Below are positions 1 to 15,937 of a stretch of 64,000 nucleotides of DNA, piece by piece (within the stretch, counting starts at the first letter, position 1; the number at the start of each line of letters is the position of its first letter). Location: assembly GCA_037308085.1 (NCBI GenBank), contig CP147779.1, positions 1,312,001 to 1,376,000 of the forward strand, in the 5' to 3' direction. Origin of the DNA: Promethearchaeati archaeon SRVP18_Atabeyarchaeia-1. GTDB taxonomy: Archaea; Asgardarchaeota; Atabeyarchaeia; Atabeyarchaeales; Atabeyarchaeaceae. The position numbers and the translations under genes are program-made. Under the pieces are notes generated by a model. The model worked only from the letters and a program-made list of their open reading frames with translations. It was not told the DNA's origin and searched no databases.

Positions 1-368
1 TGAAGCGCGGCAGAATGCTGTGCCGCATCAAGCTTCGTCCATCTTCTTAGTGCACGCTCGAGAAGAACATGCGCGTCGAATTCTACATGCAAGTGCGGAA
101 GGGCAGCAACGGATCGCCATCGAGTGCGTGCCGGTGAGCGAGGTTCCGGAAGAGCAGGCGCCGCATTAGGCTGTCTGTCTCCCGGCTCCAGCCTAGCGCC
201 GCGGGAGGGAGGGCAGAGCTCTAAGCGGACATGCTCACTAGAACATATTTATACTTCGTCGGTGAACTACTACGGTAGGGGGGTTCCCTCAGGCAGGGTG
301 GCCATCCGCGAAAACGCGTGAAAGCCGGGGTTTCATCTTGGGGAAAGCATTAATGGGAGGAGTGGAAC

Positions 369-1346
369 ATGAAAATCCTACTAACTGGCGCGTATGGCAA
401 CGTGGGCAGCTACGTTGTGAAGGAACTGCTGCGCCAGGGGTACGACACGCGCACCTTTGATTTGAGGACGCCCCGCAACGAGGAAGCCGCGGCAGAATAC
501 GTCAGGCGGATTGAGGCTGTCTGGGGCGATCTGCGAGACATTAAGAGCGTCCGTCGGGCGGTGAAAGGGGCGGACTACGTTCTGCACCTAGGGGCTATCA
601 TCCCTCCGCTGAGTGACGCCGACCCTGATATGGCGCGGGCTGTCAATATTGGCGGCACCCGCAACCTGCTGACCGCGTGCGAGGCGCAACCAAAGCCCCC
701 GCGTCTCTTCTTCGTCTCGTCTTTCGACGTGTTCGGTCATACCCAGGCGCTCCCTCCCCCGCGCCGCGCCACCGACCCTGTCGAGGCTACCGATGTCTAT
801 ACTAAGACCAAAATAGAGGGCGAAAAGATGGTTCGCAAGTCAAGTCTGCCATGGCTTATCGCACGCTTCTCGGATATGCCCATAATAGCCCTGCGCGACC
901 CCGTCCCAGCAATGTTCGAGATTGGGCTCGACAACCGTTTCGAGACAATGCACCCCGCTGACGGGGCGCTGAGCCTGGTCAACGCGCTAAAAGTAGAGGA
1001 ACTCTGGGGTAATAGGCGGCTACTACTCATCGGCGGCGGACCGAAGTGCCAACTGACCTACCGCGAGTTCCTGTTTACTCTGCTCACCGCTATGGGGATC
1101 GGACCGCTCCCCGAGGAGATCTTCAGCAAGAAGGAGTACGTAACCGACTGGCTGGACACCGAGGAGAGCCAGCGTCTCCTTCGCTACCAGCGCCATTCCT
1201 TCCAGGACATCGCCGCCGAGGTATCTGGTCTCCTCGGCTCGACGGGGCACATTGATCCTTCGGCTCGCGAGTATATACGGCAAGGGGTTATCGAGATGTC
1301 GCCCTACTATAAGAAGCCTCCTCAGAAAAGCTTGAGACACGGATAG
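369..1346 (+). CDS. NAD-dependent epimerase/dehydratase (extended SDR)
   Basis: N-terminal TGAYGNVG Rossmann motif, YTKTK catalytic YxxxK, GGAGGAG RBS. The last codons overlap a tnpB fragment on the other strand. Confidence 0.9.
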   Translation: MKILLTGAYGNVGSYVVKELLRQGYDTRTFDLRTPRNEEAAAEYVRRIEAVWGDLRDIKSVRRAVKGADYVLHLGAIIPPLSDADPDMARAVNIGGTRNLLTACEAQPKPPRLFFVSSFDVFGHTQALPPPRRATDPVEATDVYTKTKIEGEKMVRKSSLPWLIARFSDMPIIALRDPVPAMFEIGLDNRFETMHPADGALSLVNALKVEELWGNRRLLLIGGGPKCQLTYREFLFTLLTAMGIGPLPEEIFSKKEYVTDWLDTEESQRLLRYQRHSFQDIAAEVSGLLGSTGHIDPSAREYIRQGVIEMSPYYKKPPQKSLRHG

Positions 1347-1490
1347 ATGCGAGCCTTCTTGTATCAATCTTCACCCATCCAGTCTCAAGGCCGTAACCGT
1401 CCATGGTGAGCAGGTTTGAGTCCCATGCCACCTTCTCAGCGGGTTTCTTCTCTTTCTCTGGTACTTCTGGTGCGTGGATGGAGAGGTCTT
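1323..1490 (-). pseudogene. tnpB: Internal fragment of tnpB (RuvC-I region)
   Basis: Translates KPAEKVAWDSNLLTMDGYGLETGWVKIDTRRLASI, closely similar to RPAEAVAWDSNMLSMDGYSPETGWVKVDTRRLASI of the TnpB at 32282-33496. Confidence 0.85.
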
Positions 1491-1709
1491 GGACGTCGCC
1501 GCTTCCCGCGGGATCAGCTTGGACCCTGAAACCCTGAAGGCTGGGGATATCCAAGTTGATCAAGGCAATAGCGGAGGAAGTCACCAGGTTGCTGGAACGC
1601 AACAGTAGGAGTTCAGGGACTCACAAAACAGGAGACCAAAATAAATATAGGGTACGACAGCGCAATCGTACCGTACTGTTCCAGAGATCACATTCTGGGA
1701 GAGAATGAA

Positions 1710-1811
1710 ATGAAGGAACAAGTAGTGAGGAAAGGAAGAAGGATCCTCTATAAGAAACTACAGAAAAGGAATTCCAAGACCGTCATGATGGATCCGAGAC
1801 TAGGATACTGA
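1710..1811 (+). CDS. Possible 33-aa basic small protein (MKEQVVRKGRRILYKKLQKRNSKTVMMDPRLGY)
   Basis: ATG at 1710 with GGAGAG upstream and an AT-rich TATA-like AAATATA near 1643; below the ORF-track cut-off; no family recognised. Confidence 0.3.
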   Translation: MKEQVVRKGRRILYKKLQKRNSKTVMMDPRLGY

Positions 1812-4853: not shown

Positions 4854-7727
4854 CTATTTGATCTTATTGAGTAGATAGTTTATTGAAGGCATCGTACTTG
4901 CCAGGGAATAGTAGTGATTAGACAACAGTAGAAGTGAATCGATGATCGGAGAGTGGGCCTTGCTGTTGATTTTCATTGCTCCTAGGAACGAAAGCAGGCT
5001 AATTGATGATATGATTGCGATGGGAGCCAGGAGAATCAGGTTCCACGCACCAAGCCCTGAAAGCATCGAGTGCAGATAGACAGTCAGAAACACAGAGAAG
5101 ATTAGCGCAATGATACTCGCCAAGGCCATCTTCCTCAAGTTTTTCGAGTAGGCTGCCTCATTCTTATGGAGGGCCTCTGCTACTATTCTTCTGATCTTCT
5201 CCACCTTATCCATCAACCTATGGTTTTGTCTGGCCAAAGAGGAGTATAGCGTCGTGCTGCTGTCAAAGCTATCGGACTCATACTTCGTTGCTTTTATCAC
5301 AAGGTCGAGAAGAGCAACATCATAGTCAAGACTCCTTATCTCTTTCTCGGCCTCCTTCGCCTTTAAGTAGACCGTCTCTGTGAGGCTTTGCATGGCTTCG
5401 ATGTTCTCTCTAAGAATGTCAAGACTGCGGCTGAACTTATCCAGAACACTTCTCATGAACTTCAATTCCTTGTACTCGGTGCCCATTATGTTATCAGCGT
5501 TAAATGTCGGGGAGCGCTCCATGAACTGAGATAACCTCAGGAGACTGGTGGAGAGATCCTGCGCCGTCGTCGCCTCAAACGTGGACCGGGTCGGGATAAG
5601 GAAGATGTGTTCAACCACTTCCCTCAGTTCGCTGACTCGTTTGGCCCTGCCGAAGATCATCAGCCTATTCTTTATTGGCTCAAAAAGAACTGTGGCATGC
5701 GTGGTCTGCATGATCCTAGGGTTCTCCTTGACAGAGTTGAAATACTCGCCCATGCCTTTGAGCATGTACTCAAGGTTCTTGCTACCTATGACTCTCTCTT
5801 TTCTGAAGGTTCCAACTTCGTATATGCCCGTCGACGTTGAAATATCCTCAAGGAAAGAGTACTCAAAATCCTTTGGGTTAAGCTCAGAGAATTGATCTGG
5901 GCGCAGGTCAACCGACCATATGAAGCAGACAAACGATCCCAGAAGTTGACCGATGTTTGAGTATACTTTCTCAATTCTTTCATTGAATGCCTTGAGGAAC
6001 TCGTTTCTTTTCAATAGCGAAGCGGCTTTTGCCGAGTTGTCGCGATCGATCATACTCAGCTCGCCTACAGTACGATCCTTGCGCATTGTCTTGATCAAGT
6101 CTTTCAGGTACAGATTATAGTTGTTTCTGAGGGTATTCTCATAGCGGATCGCCTCGGCCCTAAGCTGCGTAAAAGTCTTGGTTGCGCCTCTATTCAGGGC
6201 CAGCTTGATCGTGACTAGTTCGCCTTCCTCCTTCACACTATAGTCCTGTGAAATCCTCTTGGAGCATTTTCCAAACGTCTTCATTATCTTCTTCCTAAGC
6301 GGATTGAACATCACCGGCACCAGGAAGAAGGCCGAGAGATACATGCCATCAACAGACAGCGACTTGCCACCAACCTTCTGTATTCTTGTGGCAACTGATT
6401 TCAGCGGGAGATATGTCATTGCATATAATCTCAGAGAAATAAAGGTAAGAAGCCCCAAGCTGCCCACGGCAACACCAATGCTGATCAAGGTTCCTTCGAT
6501 GTCTGTGCCGATGAACCCTGTTATCGTCGCTACAGCGGTGATCAGGTTAGTCAGTTGCGTCAATGCATCACGGACTATGTAGATGAAGAAGAGGTAGGAA
6601 AGATATATTGCGACCACGGACCACCCGATCGAGATTCCGCCATACGTGACCATAGCAAACCGCTGTCTCCTACTGTATTCGCTGTACTTCATACGCGCTT
6701 GGCGGCGCCCCTTTGTTAGTAGCGTTCTTATGTACCCAAATGCTTCGGACCGTAGATTCGGGATATTCAGAATATCCATAAGCGCATAGTATCCATCTGT
6801 CTCAAACATTGGGGCCATGTTCAGCAATGCCATGTAGTAAGCGAAGAAGAAGGTCATTACAAGTAGGTAAGAAGCACTCGGAAACAAGTTGAAGAATGCG
6901 GCGAGCCCGGCTACCGACCCGATTAATAGCGTTGACAGCGGACCCACGATCGATACAAGAACCCTCTTGCCCCGGGACAAACGCCAAGACTCGCTAGTAT
7001 CACAGTAGAACATTGGGTAGAAGTAATAGAGCCCAGTTCCAAGTTCCCCGGGACTCGCGCCGAAGTGCGTCAAAGCCAACCCGTGAGCCAACTCGTGAAC
7101 CACGAGAATAGGAAATATCAACACTATCGAGAAGATGAAGAATCCAAGAATTGTGGAGCCTTGCACATTGAAACTCCCAGAAGATAGCGTGTTGAGAAAG
7201 ACATCTCTTAGGAGAAAGGCGGTGAATGCAACTACTATGATTGCAATGAAAAGGAATATCTTGGTGAAAAAAACCCTTGTGAGCCTGTAGAGTCTCCTAA
7301 AGATCGAGGAAGATTTGGATGCGCCCAAAAGAGGCATGTTTATTATCAGAGGAGAAACGACTTCAGGCTTGAGTGTACCTTTCTTTGCATCCTTCACCAT
7401 CTCCCCTTCTCCATTCTGGCTATTCACGTCCCGAATGAGATTCTCTTGGGCCGCGAAAGTGATGAACCCTTCGACATCGTCGGGGCTATGCCTATTTCCA
7501 AGTTTCCTTTTGATGGACGAGATCGAGTGATGCCCATCCATCATCTTCCAGATCAATGCGGCGCTCGAATCTATGTAGTAAGTCTCCTCAGTCTTATCAT
7601 TAGCCAGCACGTATCGGTTTCTATCACTCTTTGAGATCTTTACTTGTTCTCCTCTGAGAGGACGGAACTTTGGATCATATTTTATCTTGTAGTAGATCTC
7701 CACGCCCAAGAAGTTCCACCCCCACAT
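4854..7727 (-). CDS. PqqD/RRE domain + M50 (site-2) zinc metalloprotease fused to a long helical domain and two C-terminal TM helices
   Basis: N-terminal PqqD-like YVL...YYID..AALIWKMMDG; HELAH zinc motif; GTGLYYFYPMFYCD; NMAPMFETDGYY (NxxPxxxxDG); about 450 aa soluble C-terminal region followed by two hydrophobic helices. True start is probably the TTG/GTG a few codons downstream of the GGGGGTG RBS. Confidence 0.85.
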   Translation of the reverse strand: MWGWNFLGVEIYYKIKYDPKFRPLRGEQVKISKSDRNRYVLANDKTEETYYIDSSAALIWKMMDGHHSISSIKRKLGNRHSPDDVEGFITFAAQENLIRDVNSQNGEGEMVKDAKKGTLKPEVVSPLIINMPLLGASKSSSIFRRLYRLTRVFFTKIFLFIAIIVVAFTAFLLRDVFLNTLSSGSFNVQGSTILGFFIFSIVLIFPILVVHELAHGLALTHFGASPGELGTGLYYFYPMFYCDTSESWRLSRGKRVLVSIVGPLSTLLIGSVAGLAAFFNLFPSASYLLVMTFFFAYYMALLNMAPMFETDGYYALMDILNIPNLRSEAFGYIRTLLTKGRRQARMKYSEYSRRQRFAMVTYGGISIGWSVVAIYLSYLFFIYIVRDALTQLTNLITAVATITGFIGTDIEGTLISIGVAVGSLGLLTFISLRLYAMTYLPLKSVATRIQKVGGKSLSVDGMYLSAFFLVPVMFNPLRKKIMKTFGKCSKRISQDYSVKEEGELVTIKLALNRGATKTFTQLRAEAIRYENTLRNNYNLYLKDLIKTMRKDRTVGELSMIDRDNSAKAASLLKRNEFLKAFNERIEKVYSNIGQLLGSFVCFIWSVDLRPDQFSELNPKDFEYSFLEDISTSTGIYEVGTFRKERVIGSKNLEYMLKGMGEYFNSVKENPRIMQTTHATVLFEPIKNRLMIFGRAKRVSELREVVEHIFLIPTRSTFEATTAQDLSTSLLRLSQFMERSPTFNADNIMGTEYKELKFMRSVLDKFSRSLDILRENIEAMQSLTETVYLKAKEAEKEIRSLDYDVALLDLVIKATKYESDSFDSSTTLYSSLARQNHRLMDKVEKIRRIVAEALHKNEAAYSKNLRKMALASIIALIFSVFLTVYLHSMLSGLGAWNLILLAPIAIISSISLLSFLGAMKINSKAHSPIIDSLLLLSNHYYSLASTMPSINYLLNKIK

Positions 7728-8221
7728 TCAAACATAGCTTAGGAACCAGCTTCAGGCACATGGCAAGCATAGAAAAACCTGATTGTCAACCTTGCCGTGG
7801 CTAATGTGAGACTGCACACTAACACTTGATGATGCCATTCATAAATCTATCGTAATAACCAGGAACCAGCTCACCATTCTGTCGGAGGGAAGTCCACGCC
7901 CCTTTAGGATGGGAGGAACTGCAGGTCTCCCAATGGCGGTTCAAGTGGCATTCTTGTCCAACAAGCAGTGGCGCCGGGCGGCAACAGCAAACAGAACGGA
8001 AAGCCCACAAGCTTCAGCGATGGGAAGAGGTCACAAGTCAATAATACGCCGCTGGATAAATGGATATCTCGACGTTTCAATTCGGCTTGCCTGCGTTTTG
8101 CCCTCGGCGCGAACCAGTAACATGAGATTTCTAAATTGAAAGCCTTTTAAGCAAAATCGATCACAAATCGATAGTTCTAGCATCGGCATGGTAGTGATAA
8201 GCCTACACAATTACGCGAGAA

Positions 8222-9415
8222 GTGAATTCTGCAATGAGCGGCTCTAGGAGATTCCTCACAGAGAGAAGAACCATACTGCTCACCTATGGCATAGCTTTCA
8301 CGATTGGAGTGATCATCCTGGCATACGGTCTATGGGTAGCCAATTGGAACTTCTATGATTGGCTTGAACAGCCTCTGGTACAGACAACGTTGTACTTCTC
8401 GGCCGCTGTCATAAGGGCGGTTGCTGGCTTTGGACTAATCGCGACTTACATCGCTATCTTCGAAATTCTGCTGGCGATCTTCTCAAGAGCATACAAGGCT
8501 AGAGGTATTTCAAGGATAGTGAAAGGCGCGAAGCTTCAGGACCTGTTCAGTCGCGGGACAATCACGGATGCAGTGAAGAACATCAAGATAACTGAGACAT
8601 TCAAGGGTGAGAAGATCTCTGAGGCAGTCAAGGGTGAGAAGATCTCCGCAGTGCTAGCAGGGAAGAAGGGTCGCAAGATCCGCATTGCTGGAGTAGTGTT
8701 CTTCCTTGTCTTGGTGCCCCTATTCATACTCGCCTACGTAACAATTAGATTCATCAACACAGTCAGTGGCGGTGGAGGCCAGACATTGTTCGACATCGCC
8801 TACCTGATGGTAGGAGTCTGGGGTCTATTGTTAACTGTCTACCTTCTCCCAATCGCCAGGGGAGATTTCATAACATTCGAAAAGATGTCAGATCTCAGTG
8901 ACAAACTTAAGGAAGGTGAAGTCAGGAGAGGGCTCAACAGTCTCAAAGATAGAATCGAAGGCTTCTATAATAGCAAAATCAAGAGGGAGCAGGAACAACC
9001 CGAAGAGCAGAAAGCCGTGGACAAAGTCGCGGAGGCTGTTGCCTTGGAGCACGCAGGAGAGTACGCTGACACTCTCAACAAGATAGGATTCGAGAGCGTG
9101 CGAGAAACGGTGCTCGCTTATAGGCATATGGTAACTGATTACCTTCTTCTTCCAGTCGTGCTCGGCTCGCTCGTAGTGCCTCCGGTCGCCCTGTTGTTCT
9201 TGGTAGTATTCGGTAGGGCGTTCTTCTTCAAGAAAGAAGTGGGAAGGAGCCTGCTTGAACGCATCATAGTAGTCGGCGCGGTCATGATGGCTGGGGCATG
9301 GGCTTCCGTTGACATCATCTTTGGCCAGATAACTGTCCTAGTGAGCTTTGACTATCTTATCGGCGCATTCATCGGCGTTATTGTCTTCTTGTACCTGGCT
9401 CGCAGGGCGATATGA
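8222..9415 (+). CDS. Uncharacterised multi-pass membrane protein
   Basis: 397-aa ORF with about 7-8 hydrophobic segments and two charged loops; divergent from the M50 gene. Confidence 0.75.
   Translation: MNSAMSGSRRFLTERRTILLTYGIAFTIGVIILAYGLWVANWNFYDWLEQPLVQTTLYFSAAVIRAVAGFGLIATYIAIFEILLAIFSRAYKARGISRIVKGAKLQDLFSRGTITDAVKNIKITETFKGEKISEAVKGEKISAVLAGKKGRKIRIAGVVFFLVLVPLFILAYVTIRFINTVSGGGGQTLFDIAYLMVGVWGLLLTVYLLPIARGDFITFEKMSDLSDKLKEGEVRRGLNSLKDRIEGFYNSKIKREQEQPEEQKAVDKVAEAVALEHAGEYADTLNKIGFESVRETVLAYRHMVTDYLLLPVVLGSLVVPPVALLFLVVFGRAFFFKKEVGRSLLERIIVVGAVMMAGAWASVDIIFGQITVLVSFDYLIGAFIGVIVFLYLARRAI
8601..8646 (+). repeat. In-frame 27-nt-period repeat (KGEKIS-EAV-KGEKIS)
   Basis: TCAAGGGTGAGAAGATCTC at 8601-8619 and 8628-8646. 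Confidence 0.85.
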
Positions 9416-9556
9416 AAGTCCAGAAGAGGGGCCTCTCCGAGACACCCCCAAACGAATCTCTTTTTCTTGATCCTTAATCGGGATGCAAGGCGGCAGACTG
9501 TCTAGCAATTTCCTTTCAAATGAAAGACTTTTTAGAGTCATTCCAACATTCTATAA

Positions 9557-11209
9557 ATGGTGATCAGAATGAGGAAGCCAGTGAGCGATGCCCTGCTAGG
9601 GCGAACAGAAAAGGTTCCCACATCGATGATACGCATGGGCCTGATGAAGGGGCTAGGTTTGTCGGATGACGACATCCGAAACAAGCCATTCATTGGAATA
9701 GCCAATTCATTCTTCGAGTTCAATCCCGGACATACTCATCTGAGGCAGATATCCGAATGGGTCAAAAGTGGTATTTGGGAGGGCGGAGGTGTACCCTTCG
9801 AATTCGGGGTTCCCGGACCTTGCGATGGCATGCCCAATGGACTTGAAGGCATGAGATACATACTTCCTCTCAGAGATCTCATAGCAGACAGTATTGAGTT
9901 GATGATGCGGGCGCACTACTTTGATGGGTTGGTCGTCGTGACAAGTTGCGACAAGATCAACCCTGCGGCACTAATGGCTGCAGGTAGGCTGGACATACCA
10001 ACAATCATCGTGACTGGTGGTCCGTCATTCATGGCCGTAGAGTTTGCCCCTGAGAGAGTCATAGATCCGATGAAGATGGATCCAAGGCAGATCATTGAAA
10101 CCGTCACGTGTGCAACCTGTGGCGCCTGCGAAATAGCTGGAACCGCGTCGACAGGCCAATGTCTTATGGAAGCTTTAGGCATGTCGCTTCCAGGCTCGGG
10201 AACAATACCTGCTGTCCACACGTCCAGGTTAGCCCTATCTAAGGAGTCGGGTAAGACCATTGTCAAGATGGTTGAGGAGAATCTGACTCCGTCAAAGATA
10301 ATGACATACGACGCGTTTGAAAATGCAATCATGGCTCTGATGGCTATTGGCGGATCAACGAATTATGTTATACACTTGCCCGCAGTTGCCCACGAGCTCG
10401 GCATCAAGCTTGAAATCGGACTCTTTGACAAGGTATCAAAGACTGTACCATGCCTTTGTGGTATCTACCCAAGTGGCTCAAATACGATCCTCGACTTGTA
10501 CAAGGCAGGGGGCATGATGGGCGTCCTAAAGAGAATTGAAGCAACGCTCCACAAGGACTGCCTAACTGTAAGCGGGAAGACAATTGGAGAAGTCATCAAG
10601 AATGGGCGAGTGACAAACGAAGCCGTCATTAGACCACTCGAGAAACCTTTCCATCCACAAGGGGGAATCGCGATACTGAGCGGGAATATAGCTCCAGAAG
10701 GTGCGGTCGTTAAGCAGTCGGCGGTTCCGGAGAACATGTACGTTTTCCAAGGGAGGGCGAGATGCTTCAACGCAGAGGAAGACGCTATCGAAGCAATTCT
10801 GAAGAAGTATGTGAAGGCGGGCGATGTCATGGTCATTCGCTACGAGGGCCCGAGGGGAGGGCCTGGCATGAGGGAGATGCTCTCAGTAACGACCTCGCTC
10901 CAAATGTATGGGCTAGACAAATCAGTGGCGCTCGTAACAGATGGGAGATTCTCAGGTGTCTCGGGAGGGCCTGCGATAGGTCATGTCAGTCCGGAAGCTG
11001 CGAGCGGGGGGCCGATCGCCATAATAGTTGATGGAGACACAATCAAGATCGATATCCCGAATAGAAAACTCGAACTAGATGTGCCGCAGGCAGAGATCAG
11101 ATCTAGGCTTCAGAAATGGAAGCCACTGAAACCGAAGGTGAACAAGGGCTACATGGTAAGATACACTAGACAAGTCGCATCGGCTTCAATAGGCGCGTAC
11201 CTAGAGTAA
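9557..11209 (+). CDS. ilvD: Dihydroxy-acid dehydratase (IlvD/Edd family; possibly a sugar-acid dehydratase)
   Basis: PCDG, SCDKINP, GGSTN, YEGPRGGPGMREM, TDGRFSG and GHVSPEA motifs. Confidence 0.9.
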   Translation: MVIRMRKPVSDALLGRTEKVPTSMIRMGLMKGLGLSDDDIRNKPFIGIANSFFEFNPGHTHLRQISEWVKSGIWEGGGVPFEFGVPGPCDGMPNGLEGMRYILPLRDLIADSIELMMRAHYFDGLVVVTSCDKINPAALMAAGRLDIPTIIVTGGPSFMAVEFAPERVIDPMKMDPRQIIETVTCATCGACEIAGTASTGQCLMEALGMSLPGSGTIPAVHTSRLALSKESGKTIVKMVEENLTPSKIMTYDAFENAIMALMAIGGSTNYVIHLPAVAHELGIKLEIGLFDKVSKTVPCLCGIYPSGSNTILDLYKAGGMMGVLKRIEATLHKDCLTVSGKTIGEVIKNGRVTNEAVIRPLEKPFHPQGGIAILSGNIAPEGAVVKQSAVPENMYVFQGRARCFNAEEDAIEAILKKYVKAGDVMVIRYEGPRGGPGMREMLSVTTSLQMYGLDKSVALVTDGRFSGVSGGPAIGHVSPEAASGGPIAIIVDGDTIKIDIPNRKLELDVPQAEIRSRLQKWKPLKPKVNKGYMVRYTRQVASASIGAYLE

Positions 11210-14842: not shown

Positions 14843-15937
14843 ATGTCGGTAATAAAGAGTATTGATCTCAAGGAGGATGAATATGCATTCTACGGCAAGA
14901 AACATGTAATTGAACTCAAGGTTTCACCGGGGGGTGCAGAGCTGTTCTTTGACGGCAGGAAGGTGTCCTCAGGAAAGCTCTCGCGAGAATTTCGTAGCAT
15001 ATTCACCATCGAAGACAAAGGAAAGCAAGAATCTTATGAGGTTATAGTAAAGGAAGAACCGCATGTACAGGTAGGATTGGAGGTTGTCGCAAGAGTTGCG
15101 ACCCCCGCTGACATTCCCGGAGGACATACCCGCCTTGAGCGACACCTTGGGCCCCATCCTGGGCCGCCGGTTGTCCCAGATTTGAAGGTGACGAGAATAC
15201 TAAAAGCTGCGGTTATCCGCGATGGTAAAAAAGCTGCGGTTATCCGCGATGGTAAGATTGTTTACAATGAAGGACTTCTAATAACATCAACAGATCTGAA
15301 GGAATTTCAACAGATTCTCCAACTGAGAGATAAGGGAGTGAAGTATGGCTACTGCTCCAAGTGTGATCTAGCAATTCCACTTCCGGACTCAAGATACTGC
15401 CCGAACTGTGGCGCAGAGACAGAGCCAATTTTCCCTGGCGAGAATCCCGTTCCTAGTTCGACTACAGCTCAGGAACTTGGTAGCCAAACTGCGGGAAACG
15501 GGCGGGAAGAATCATGCGCTGTGTGCAAGGAGAATTTTGAGCGCGGTGACTACGTCGCATGGTGCCCATATTGCGGAAAACCAGCCCACAAGATTGAGTT
15601 AATCAAATGGCTCAACGAAAAGAGACGTTGCCCATCCTGTGAACAACAACTCGACGGAAAGAAGATCGAAGATCTGTTGCAGATAGTTCCCTCCAGCCCC
15701 ACTATGCTTAACGCTCCTCATGGCAGCACGGCGGAGGGAAGGGCGACGAGAGGCGTCGACATCCTTGATGTGAAACGGAAGCTACTGGGCGTGTGCATTG
15801 TCTGCGGTGAGAAGGTGTACGAGGGGGATCAAGTCGCACGTTGCCCACACTGTCGGGGGATTGCCCATAGAGGTGATCTTCTGGAGTGGGCACACGTCAA
15901 GGGCCAATGCCCGTCATGCGGCAAGAAGCTAGATTAG
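14843..15937 (+). CDS. Zinc-ribbon plus tandem RING/PHD-like zinc-finger protein
   Basis: CSKC..CPNC ribbon; two copies of CxxC-x12-CPxC-x4-H-x2-(E/D)-x3-W-x6-CPSC; GGAGGG RBS. Confidence 0.8.
   Translation: MSVIKSIDLKEDEYAFYGKKHVIELKVSPGGAELFFDGRKVSSGKLSREFRSIFTIEDKGKQESYEVIVKEEPHVQVGLEVVARVATPADIPGGHTRLERHLGPHPGPPVVPDLKVTRILKAAVIRDGKKAAVIRDGKIVYNEGLLITSTDLKEFQQILQLRDKGVKYGYCSKCDLAIPLPDSRYCPNCGAETEPIFPGENPVPSSTTAQELGSQTAGNGREESCAVCKENFERGDYVAWCPYCGKPAHKIELIKWLNEKRRCPSCEQQLDGKKIEDLLQIVPSSPTMLNAPHGSTAEGRATRGVDILDVKRKLLGVCIVCGEKVYEGDQVARCPHCRGIAHRGDLLEWAHVKGQCPSCGKKLD
15202..15255 (+). repeat. Exact 27-bp tandem duplication (KAAVIRDGK x2)
   Basis: AAAAGCTGCGGTTATCCGCGATGGTAA twice, head to tail. 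Confidence 0.95.

Follow-up and report, generated by a model that had tools for sequence, protein, structure and literature searches.

What does a protein do that joins, on one chain, a PqqD-like recognition domain, an intramembrane zinc protease and a large C-terminal module, and that has no evident substrate encoded beside it? This question is raised by a gene of Promethearchaeati archaeon SRVP18_Atabeyarchaeia-1, within the stretch of 64,000 nucleotides (contig CP147779.1, positions 1,312,001 to 1,376,000; hereafter the window) analyzed here. On the minus strand, positions 4854–7727 form one unbroken open reading frame (ORF) of 957 codons; the public database copy of the protein begins at residue 7, so that the start codon carries an uncertainty of 6 codons. 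Our answer, which we hold with about even confidence, is that this gene encodes a recognition-guided intramembrane zinc peptidase belonging to an archaea-specific subfamily, with a C-terminal module of regulatory or assembly function. The gene is present once in the Atabeyarchaeia-1 genome, and the protein has about 15 close orthologues at 63–82% identity in addition to full-length homologues in Nitrososphaerales at about 24% identity. The close homologues carry the label "Njordarchaeota" in public databases. The two complete Atabeyarchaeia genomes come from Californian wetland soil (PMC11291895).

The N-terminal domain is a RiPP recognition element (RRE), where RiPP denotes a ribosomally synthesized peptide that is post-translationally modified. 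A preliminary description of this DNA had proposed a PqqD-like N-terminus, and several lines of evidence bear it out. Pfam PqqD (PF05402) matches residues 39–98 of the protein with an E-value of 9e-4 and 19.9 bits, under the cut-off of 23.4, and scores 25.1 bits in a scan of the genome, exceeding that cut-off; the 957-residue ORF is the sole PF05402 match in the Atabeyarchaeia-1 genome. A profile of the family matched TbiB1 and PqqD in the PDB with an E-value of about 0.002. In Foldseek searches, the N-terminal domain matched TbiB1 and lasso B1 proteins with a probability of 1.0, template-modeling (TM) scores of 0.67–0.75 (0.71–0.75 for TbiB1 itself) and a root-mean-square deviation of 2.3–2.9 Å. 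The modeled domain has the winged-helix fold, with strands at residues 29–35, 38–43 and 48–53 followed by helices, and a predicted local distance difference test (pLDDT) score of about 80.

The protease part is equally recognizable. The motif HELAH lies inside the hydrophobic segment 186–220, in keeping with the M50 feature of an HExxH motif within a transmembrane helix, and residues N303, P306, E309, T310, D311 and G312 of NMAPMFETDG, the motif that fits the NxxPxxxxDG signature, are invariant across 33 homologues, as are all catalytic residues of the M50 core; the earlier reading of intact M50 motifs thus holds. Pfam M50 (PF02163) gives 10.5 bits on this protein, short of the gathering score of 27.2, and some Nitrososphaerales homologues hold precomputed PF02163 matches. 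From the full-length AlphaFold2 model, built from 33 sequences and with a pLDDT of 76, Foldseek matched the core to MjS2P (3b4r_A, probability 0.98) and SpoIVFB (8vjl_A, probability 0.99), at E-values of about 0.15 and with low TM-scores. In addition, the NCBIfam model of the daptide intramembrane metalloprotease (NF041824, daptide_HExxH) covers residues 31–390 with an E-value of 6e-50, and that of the YydH/LiaK epipeptide protease (NF058609) matches the catalytic core with an E-value of 2e-15. The assignment of an RRE joined to an M50 protease is sound because the Pfam, NCBIfam, PDB-profile and Foldseek results and the sole PF05402 match in the genome all agree. Along its entire length, the N-terminal portion of about 390 residues is a homologue of the RRE-M50 leader peptidases known from RiPP pathways, and an intact RRE and an intact M50 zinc site (H211, E212, H215 and D311) stand on one chain.

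In the daptide pathway, RRE domains are fused N-terminally to a leader-removing intramembrane site-2 protease (Ren et al., 2023, bioRxiv 10.1101/2023.03.08.531785); M50 enzymes of the epipeptide and pearlin pathways have been reviewed, with a description of the role of EpeP (PMC10885120). Like the daptide proteases DapP and MpaP (NF041824), the archaeal protein joins an N-terminal RRE to an intramembrane site-2-type HExxH protease, and the two are alignable over residues 31–390. Unlike them, it is archaeal, has about 520 additional C-terminal residues and falls short of the score required for membership. The surroundings differ as well, as no DapB, oxidative decarboxylase, class-III aminotransferase, methyltransferase, ELExMEAP precursor or Thr-ending precursor was found nearby; the neighbors are instead HisC, an FGGY kinase, IlvD and GH38. 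The neighboring aminotransferase was considered as a daptide-type enzyme and rejected because it passes the hisC equivalog cut-off. With EpeP and the YydH/LiaK group (NF058609), the protein shares the matched intramembrane M50 core. EpeP, which is dedicated to a RiPP, differs in having neither an RRE fusion nor a C-terminal module, and its operon also encodes the precursor and a radical S-adenosylmethionine (SAM) epimerase. In the literature, no paper was found that combines site-2 proteases, archaea and PqqD.

Hydropathy indicates eight membrane helices. The first six lie at about residues 153–175, 192–214, 257–279, 284–305, 364–386 and 412–434, the region 440–865 is soluble, and the last two helices (868–888 and 895–917) form a hairpin, which agrees with the extra transmembrane helices, long soluble region and two-helix end described earlier. 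All stretches rich in lysine and arginine (RLSRGKR, KGRRQARMK...RRQR, the start of the C-terminal domain, KNLRK and KINSK) lie on the same side of the membrane as the N-terminus and RRE. The positive-inside rule therefore predicts that the RRE, the active-site loops, the large C-terminal domain and the tail share the cytoplasmic side. Such a layout suggests how the protein may work. The cytoplasmic RRE, held on a flexible linker to the M50 core, would capture a cytoplasmically made peptide or protein by a short recognition sequence and would present the neighboring segment to the membrane-embedded active site, where this segment would be cut. The C-terminal module of 520 residues, on the same side of the membrane, would control the protease as a regulatory, ligand-sensing or assembly part.

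This module is confined to the family. In an exhaustive HMMER search of residues 440–957 against 1.84 billion representatives, just 20 proteins matched with an E-value of at most 0.001, all of them either proteins of 880–967 residues with the identical architecture or fragments thereof, and the module occurs in no other architecture. A 500-residue match that could have been a stand-alone version was rejected, being the latter half of a copy that is split or frameshifted; the overlapping upstream part of this copy (324 residues) is 33% identical to residues 47–335 of the 957-residue protein. In this metagenome locus (L032, 3061–5503), the family copy is broken into overlapping ORFs of 324 and 500 residues; the break lies past about residue 335 and may mark a pseudogene or stem from a frameshift or from faulty assembly. 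No Pfam family accounts for the C-terminal region, the 25 families listed for 46 members do not include CorA, and the region resembles no known accessory domain of M50 proteins. The fusion of an RRE-M50 protease with this module is real, rare and undescribed, and as distributed here it is found only in archaea.

A dedicated model of the module, built from 46 sequences (pLDDT 79.7, predicted TM-score 0.76), shows a seven-stranded alpha/beta part with helices, three of them inserted, followed by a helical bundle; a stalk helix of about 70 residues continues into the first helix of the hairpin, and the second hairpin helix and the tail follow. Nine residues of the domain, E530, W604, P610, D628, F641, E683, P684, G693 and R694, are invariant across two archaeal phyla. 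Two-copy modeling of residues 456–949 gave a score of 0.00, which, as no controls accompanied it, weighs neither for nor against oligomerization.

The preliminary description had likened this part of the protein to CorA-like pore effectors, and the comparison proved partly apt. The order of elements resembles that of CorA, Mrs2 and ZntB (PF01544; 4ev6, 4i0u, 5n77), in which an alpha/beta domain and long helices lead through a stalk into a first transmembrane helix, a short loop and a second transmembrane helix, and motifs resembling the W-strand and the FPxLxxED segment of CorA occur in the same order. CorA chains lead the Foldseek lists of both models and are thus the best, though weak, structural look-alike; their E-values of 0.006–0.1 are no better than helical models often reach, according to the tool's notes, and the global TM-scores are poor. 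A wide structure search of the module placed spectrin-like bundles on top. An ESM Atlas feature search with residues 450–865 returned no usable match, and the fold search returned only rows with TM-scores of 0.22–0.26 (GGDEF_2/PucR, TackOD1 and AcrB). Alignment of the module profile by hhalign with a profile of 11 Asgard CorA proteins gave a probability of about 1% and P-values of 0.056–0.075, which are not significant. At default settings, one segment is paired, namely W604...P610...D628 with "TW.. ... FPLxxED" of CorA. This CorA segment contains the Mg-sensing Asp89 of Thermotoga maritima CorA. When the alignment threshold is lowered, the colinear match runs on to the hairpin. A Q-hairpin motif is aligned with that of CorA as well. 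Unlike CorA, the module lacks the GMN motif and a Pfam match, the loop between the helices (HSMLSGLGAWN) is not conserved in the family, three helices are inserted, a tail of 40 residues is appended, a protease stands in front, and some members of the family do without the hairpin. Overall, the module has a CorA-like layout that possibly reflects a very remote kinship; membership of the CorA superfamily is not shown.

The history of the hairpin bears on whether this module could be a pore. In a maximum-likelihood tree rooted on bacterial M50-HlyD relatives, the Atabeyarchaeia/"Njord" clade is sister to all Nitrososphaerales-type sequences, and the hairpin, being found in both deep branches, is ancestral. 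A derived Nitrososphaerales clade of about 21 sequences (about 880 residues each) has lost it: a charged linker stands in its place, and the amphipathic helix at the end is retained together with the soluble domain, so that a pore cannot be the function common to the whole family. The original proposal, a device made of one chain where the binding of a peptide sets off intramembrane proteolysis and thereby releases or activates a CorA-like pore for signaling or defense, draws on the leading position of CorA chains in Foldseek and on the aligned W...FPxLxxED and Q-hairpin motifs. However, the profile similarity does not reach significance, GMN is absent, the inter-helix loop varies, and an entire clade without the hairpin keeps everything else. 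A defense role also finds no echo in the surroundings, as PADLOC gave no match and no defense or mobile genes occur in the neighborhood of the protease. We therefore regard such a device as very improbable, and the module is probably not a released pore.

Bacterial relatives point in another direction. The M50 core falls in a clade with bacterial M50-HlyD, FHA-M50 and M50-cyclic-nucleotide-monophosphate (cNMP)-binding proteins annotated as "putative peptide zinc metalloprotease" (P0039–P0048), with E-values of 1e-9 to 1e-19. The plan is common to both groups: a cytoplasmic recognition or sensor domain, six transmembrane helices and a variable C-terminal module. These relatives carry FHA or PqqD domains before the M50 core and, after it, HlyD domains or, in one case, two cNMP-binding domains; their C-terminal module is thus a periplasmic HlyD adaptor or a tandem of cNMP-binding domains, not the CorA-like module of the archaeal proteins. 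The position after the M50 core is thus a slot for swappable modules. Since the archaeal module sits where its relatives carry sensor or adaptor modules, it would most likely regulate or assemble the enzyme, be it as a regulatory, a ligand-sensing or an assembly part.

Table 1. Features of the protease gene and of the associated genes (positions are those of the window)
Feature	Positions	Strand	Evidence or remark
Whole ORF, 957 residues: RRE, M50 core, CorA-like module, transmembrane hairpin and tail	4854..7727	-	
RRE/PqqD-like winged helix, residues ~20-100, then low-confidence linker 101-127	7428..7670	-	Pfam, PDB profile, Foldseek, model
M50/S2P (site-2 protease)-type six-helix core, residues 146-437	6417..7292	-	NF041824, Foldseek, hydropathy
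HELAH zinc-binding/catalytic motif (H211, E212, H215) in transmembrane helix 2, residues 211-215	7083..7097	-	Invariant in 33 family members
NMAPMFETDG motif, residues 303-312, third zinc ligand D311, end of transmembrane helix 4	6792..6821	-	Key residues invariant
Family-specific cytoplasmic domain, residues 455-865, CorA-like order of elements	5133..6365	-	
Conserved W604...P610...D628 segment (WSVDLRPDQ...FLED), aligned with CorA W-strand and FPLxxED (Asp89-type)	5844..5918	-	hhalign
Two-helix transmembrane hairpin, residues 868-917, without GMN motif	4977..5126	-	Hydropathy; lost in a derived Nitrososphaerales clade
Conserved cytoplasmic amphipathic tail (HSPxxD...Y...D.L), residues 918-957	4857..4976	-	Present with or without hairpin
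Very basic micro-ORF of 33 residues, MKEQVVRKGRRILYKKLQKRNSKTVMMDPRLGY	1710..1811	+	81-84% identical copies
B12 radical SAM gene, 622 residues	about 1255-3123 bases before window start	-	TIGR03975

The distribution of the family is patchy. Among the Asgard genomes sampled, a profile of the C-terminal domain matched 3 of 301, which belong to a single one of the 30 families sampled; among the Nitrososphaerales genomes sampled, it matched 8 of 251 (about 3%). Named database records agree with this distribution, which fits an accessory function. It also bears on another explanation, that of a housekeeping site-2-type protease engaged in the quality control of membrane proteins or in clearing remnant peptides, the extra domains being lineage-specific decoration. 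The intact, S2P-like M50 core would suit such an enzyme, as would the ordinary metabolic neighbors in Atabeyarchaeia. However, a general function sits poorly with so restricted an occurrence, the nearest characterized relatives are pathway-specific RiPP peptidases rather than general S2Ps, and the RRE domain implies sequence-specific recognition. A housekeeping role is accordingly improbable.

In Nitrososphaerales, the neighborhood of the protease gene contains a recurrent partner. A gene for a cNMP-binding protein of 140 residues lies directly upstream, on the same strand, in seven of the seven loci that include upstream DNA, and the matches of its product include TIGR03896, "bacteriocin-type transport-associated protein," with an E-value of 4e-10. 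A gene for a soluble TrmB-like regulator also lies near the protease, and the remaining flanks differ. Across nine Nitrososphaerales loci, the sole recurrent genes are those for the cNMP-binding protein, the TrmB-like regulator and VapBC, together with ORFs shadowing the first two, and no other conserved small ORF was found around these loci. The TrmB-like neighbor was rejected as a membrane-tethered substrate, as it has no hydrophobic segment. The trio of TrmB-like gene, 140-residue cNMP-binding gene and long RRE-M50 gene is seen at positions 5889–10643 of locus L002 and also at loci L003–L007, L010, L013 and L014. In these archaea, the trio may constitute a cyclic-nucleotide-linked protease module.

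In a further reading, the family would be a novel type of machine for regulated intramembrane proteolysis in archaea: a CorA-derived cytoplasmic sensor of divalent cations or another ligand would gate the RRE-guided M50 protease, with the cNMP-binding partner aiding in Nitrososphaerales, and would thereby link a signal in the cell to sequence-specific cutting of a peptide or protein at the membrane; or the CorA-like part would be a channel controlled by the protease. Given as one proposition, we consider this reading improbable.

In Atabeyarchaeia, the protease gene is flanked by genes for IlvD, GH38, DUF3786, an FGGY (xylulokinase-like) kinase and HisC, and this synteny extends across genomes that are about 67–70% identical. 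Other features of the window were recorded alongside. A multi-pass membrane protein of 397 residues without a Pfam, NCBIfam or PADLOC match is encoded divergently from the protease gene (8222–9415, plus strand), has a version of 391 residues at one orthologous locus and is missing from Atabeyarchaeia-2; it was rejected as a partner of the protease because in Atabeyarchaeia-2 IlvD is directly divergent from the protease gene. At 14843–15937 on the plus strand, a protein of 364 residues shows matches to a prokaryotic RING finger and a zinc ribbon. An Rfam search of the window gave no match.

The earlier statement that no RiPP cluster is present holds for the immediate neighborhood, as no HlyD, ABC transporter or precursor gene adjoins the protease gene in Atabeyarchaeia-1 and no small conserved ORF adjoins it in the Atabeyarchaeia loci, but it does not hold at a greater distance. 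A B12 radical SAM gene encoding 622 residues lies 6.1 kb downstream of the protease gene, on the same strand and just beyond the window. Along its whole length, the product matches TIGR03975, "RiPP maturation radical SAM C-methyltransferase," with an E-value of 2.5e-80 and 270.7 bits, against a cut-off of 281.85. The pairing of the two genes on one strand, 3.3–6.6 kb apart, recurs in each of the family's three genomes as well as in a metagenome orthologue. In addition, the very basic micro-ORF MKEQVVRKGRRILYKKLQKRNSKTVMMDPRLGY is 81–84% identical in Atabeyarchaeia-2 and the metagenome orthologue, amid otherwise unconserved intergenic DNA; it adjoins the radical SAM gene where no island intervenes and is present in 3 of 301 Asgard genomes, exactly those with the protease. 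In these three genomes, the radical SAM gene and the micro-ORF both lie within 3–6.6 kb of the protease gene. It is possible but unproven that the micro-ORF belongs with the radical SAM gene to a loose peptide-modification set.

The island in question is seen in the Atabeyarchaeia-1 genome only, where an insertion of about 2.7 kb parts the radical SAM gene from the micro-ORF. It occupies window positions 1–1655 and about 1160 bases before the window start (L034, 440–3255), has a GC content of 52–64% against about 45% in the flanks, contains a 232-residue ORF without a family match and a short-chain dehydrogenase/reductase-type epimerase/dehydratase gene, and is bracketed by imperfect direct repeats of about 110 nt (79–86% identical). 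An ORF of 42–58 residues with Cys and Tyr just upstream of the radical SAM gene was considered and rejected, as it is unconserved in orthologous loci; it is part of the direct repeat bordering the island. Outside the window, at contig positions 8871–10103, the genome has another B12 radical SAM gene that is TIGR03975-like but more distant (173.5 bits), with a counterpart in Atabeyarchaeia-2.

These findings raise the alternative that the protein serves a dispersed RiPP pathway as leader peptidase. The radical SAM enzyme would modify a small precursor, perhaps the 33-residue micro-protein, and the RRE-M50 protein would then trim and perhaps export it. The full-length TIGR03975 match and the same-strand pairing speak for such a pathway, as does the count among the 301 Asgard genomes, where the long M50 protein (three genomes), the radical SAM type (six) and the micro-ORF (three) all co-occur in one family. 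However, the intervening genes are opposite-strand housekeeping genes (HisC, above its cut-off, and the xylulokinase-like kinase), and the three genomes are one lineage with general synteny, so that the pairing counts as one evolutionary observation. Outside this lineage, the association breaks down in both directions, as a TIGR03975-like gene is missing from two Nitrososphaerales genomes that carry the protease, and three other Asgard genomes with true TIGR03975 genes are without the protease. No Nif11 leader was found (the search for NHLP leaders was uninformative, its control matching nowhere), the short ORF upstream of the radical SAM gene is unconserved, and the radical SAM C-terminus shows no PqqD match by sequence. 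A dispersed pathway is thus rather unlikely. For the favored reading too, the only candidate substrates in Atabeyarchaeia-1 are the products of the loosely linked RiPP-type B12 radical SAM and micro-ORF set.

The favored reading, a recognition-guided peptidase with a regulatory or assembly module, has to be set against several points. The daptide model NF041824 scores 170.4 bits (172.5 in the genome scan) against a curated cut-off of 300, and the epipeptide protease model NF058609 scores 57 bits against 225. No substrate, precursor or modifying enzyme adjoins the protease in any of about 12 loci examined. A genome search of Atabeyarchaeia-1 found no cNMP-binding domain, and the partner seen in Nitrososphaerales therefore cannot explain the Atabeyarchaeia protein. 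Finally, the role suggested for the C-terminal domain rests on position and analogy, and no ligand site or fold assignment is secure.

To our knowledge, RRE-M50 peptidases have been described only in RiPP clusters of bacteria, next to the gene for their substrate, and the substrates of archaeal S2P-type enzymes are largely unknown. The 957-residue protein represents an archaeal RRE-M50 branch, found in a soil Asgard family and some soil ammonia-oxidizer relatives, which lacks a substrate gene next to it and bears a large conserved module unique to the branch. If the CorA-like reading is true, this would be the first CorA-type cytoplasmic domain fused to an intramembrane protease, and site-2-type proteases would gain, beside PDZ and CBS, a new module of accessory or regulatory kind. 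If the radical SAM link is true, the locus would join a very small number of candidate RiPP pathways in Asgard archaea. In both cases, the protein offers a concrete experimental handle, the fusion being both unusual and testable.

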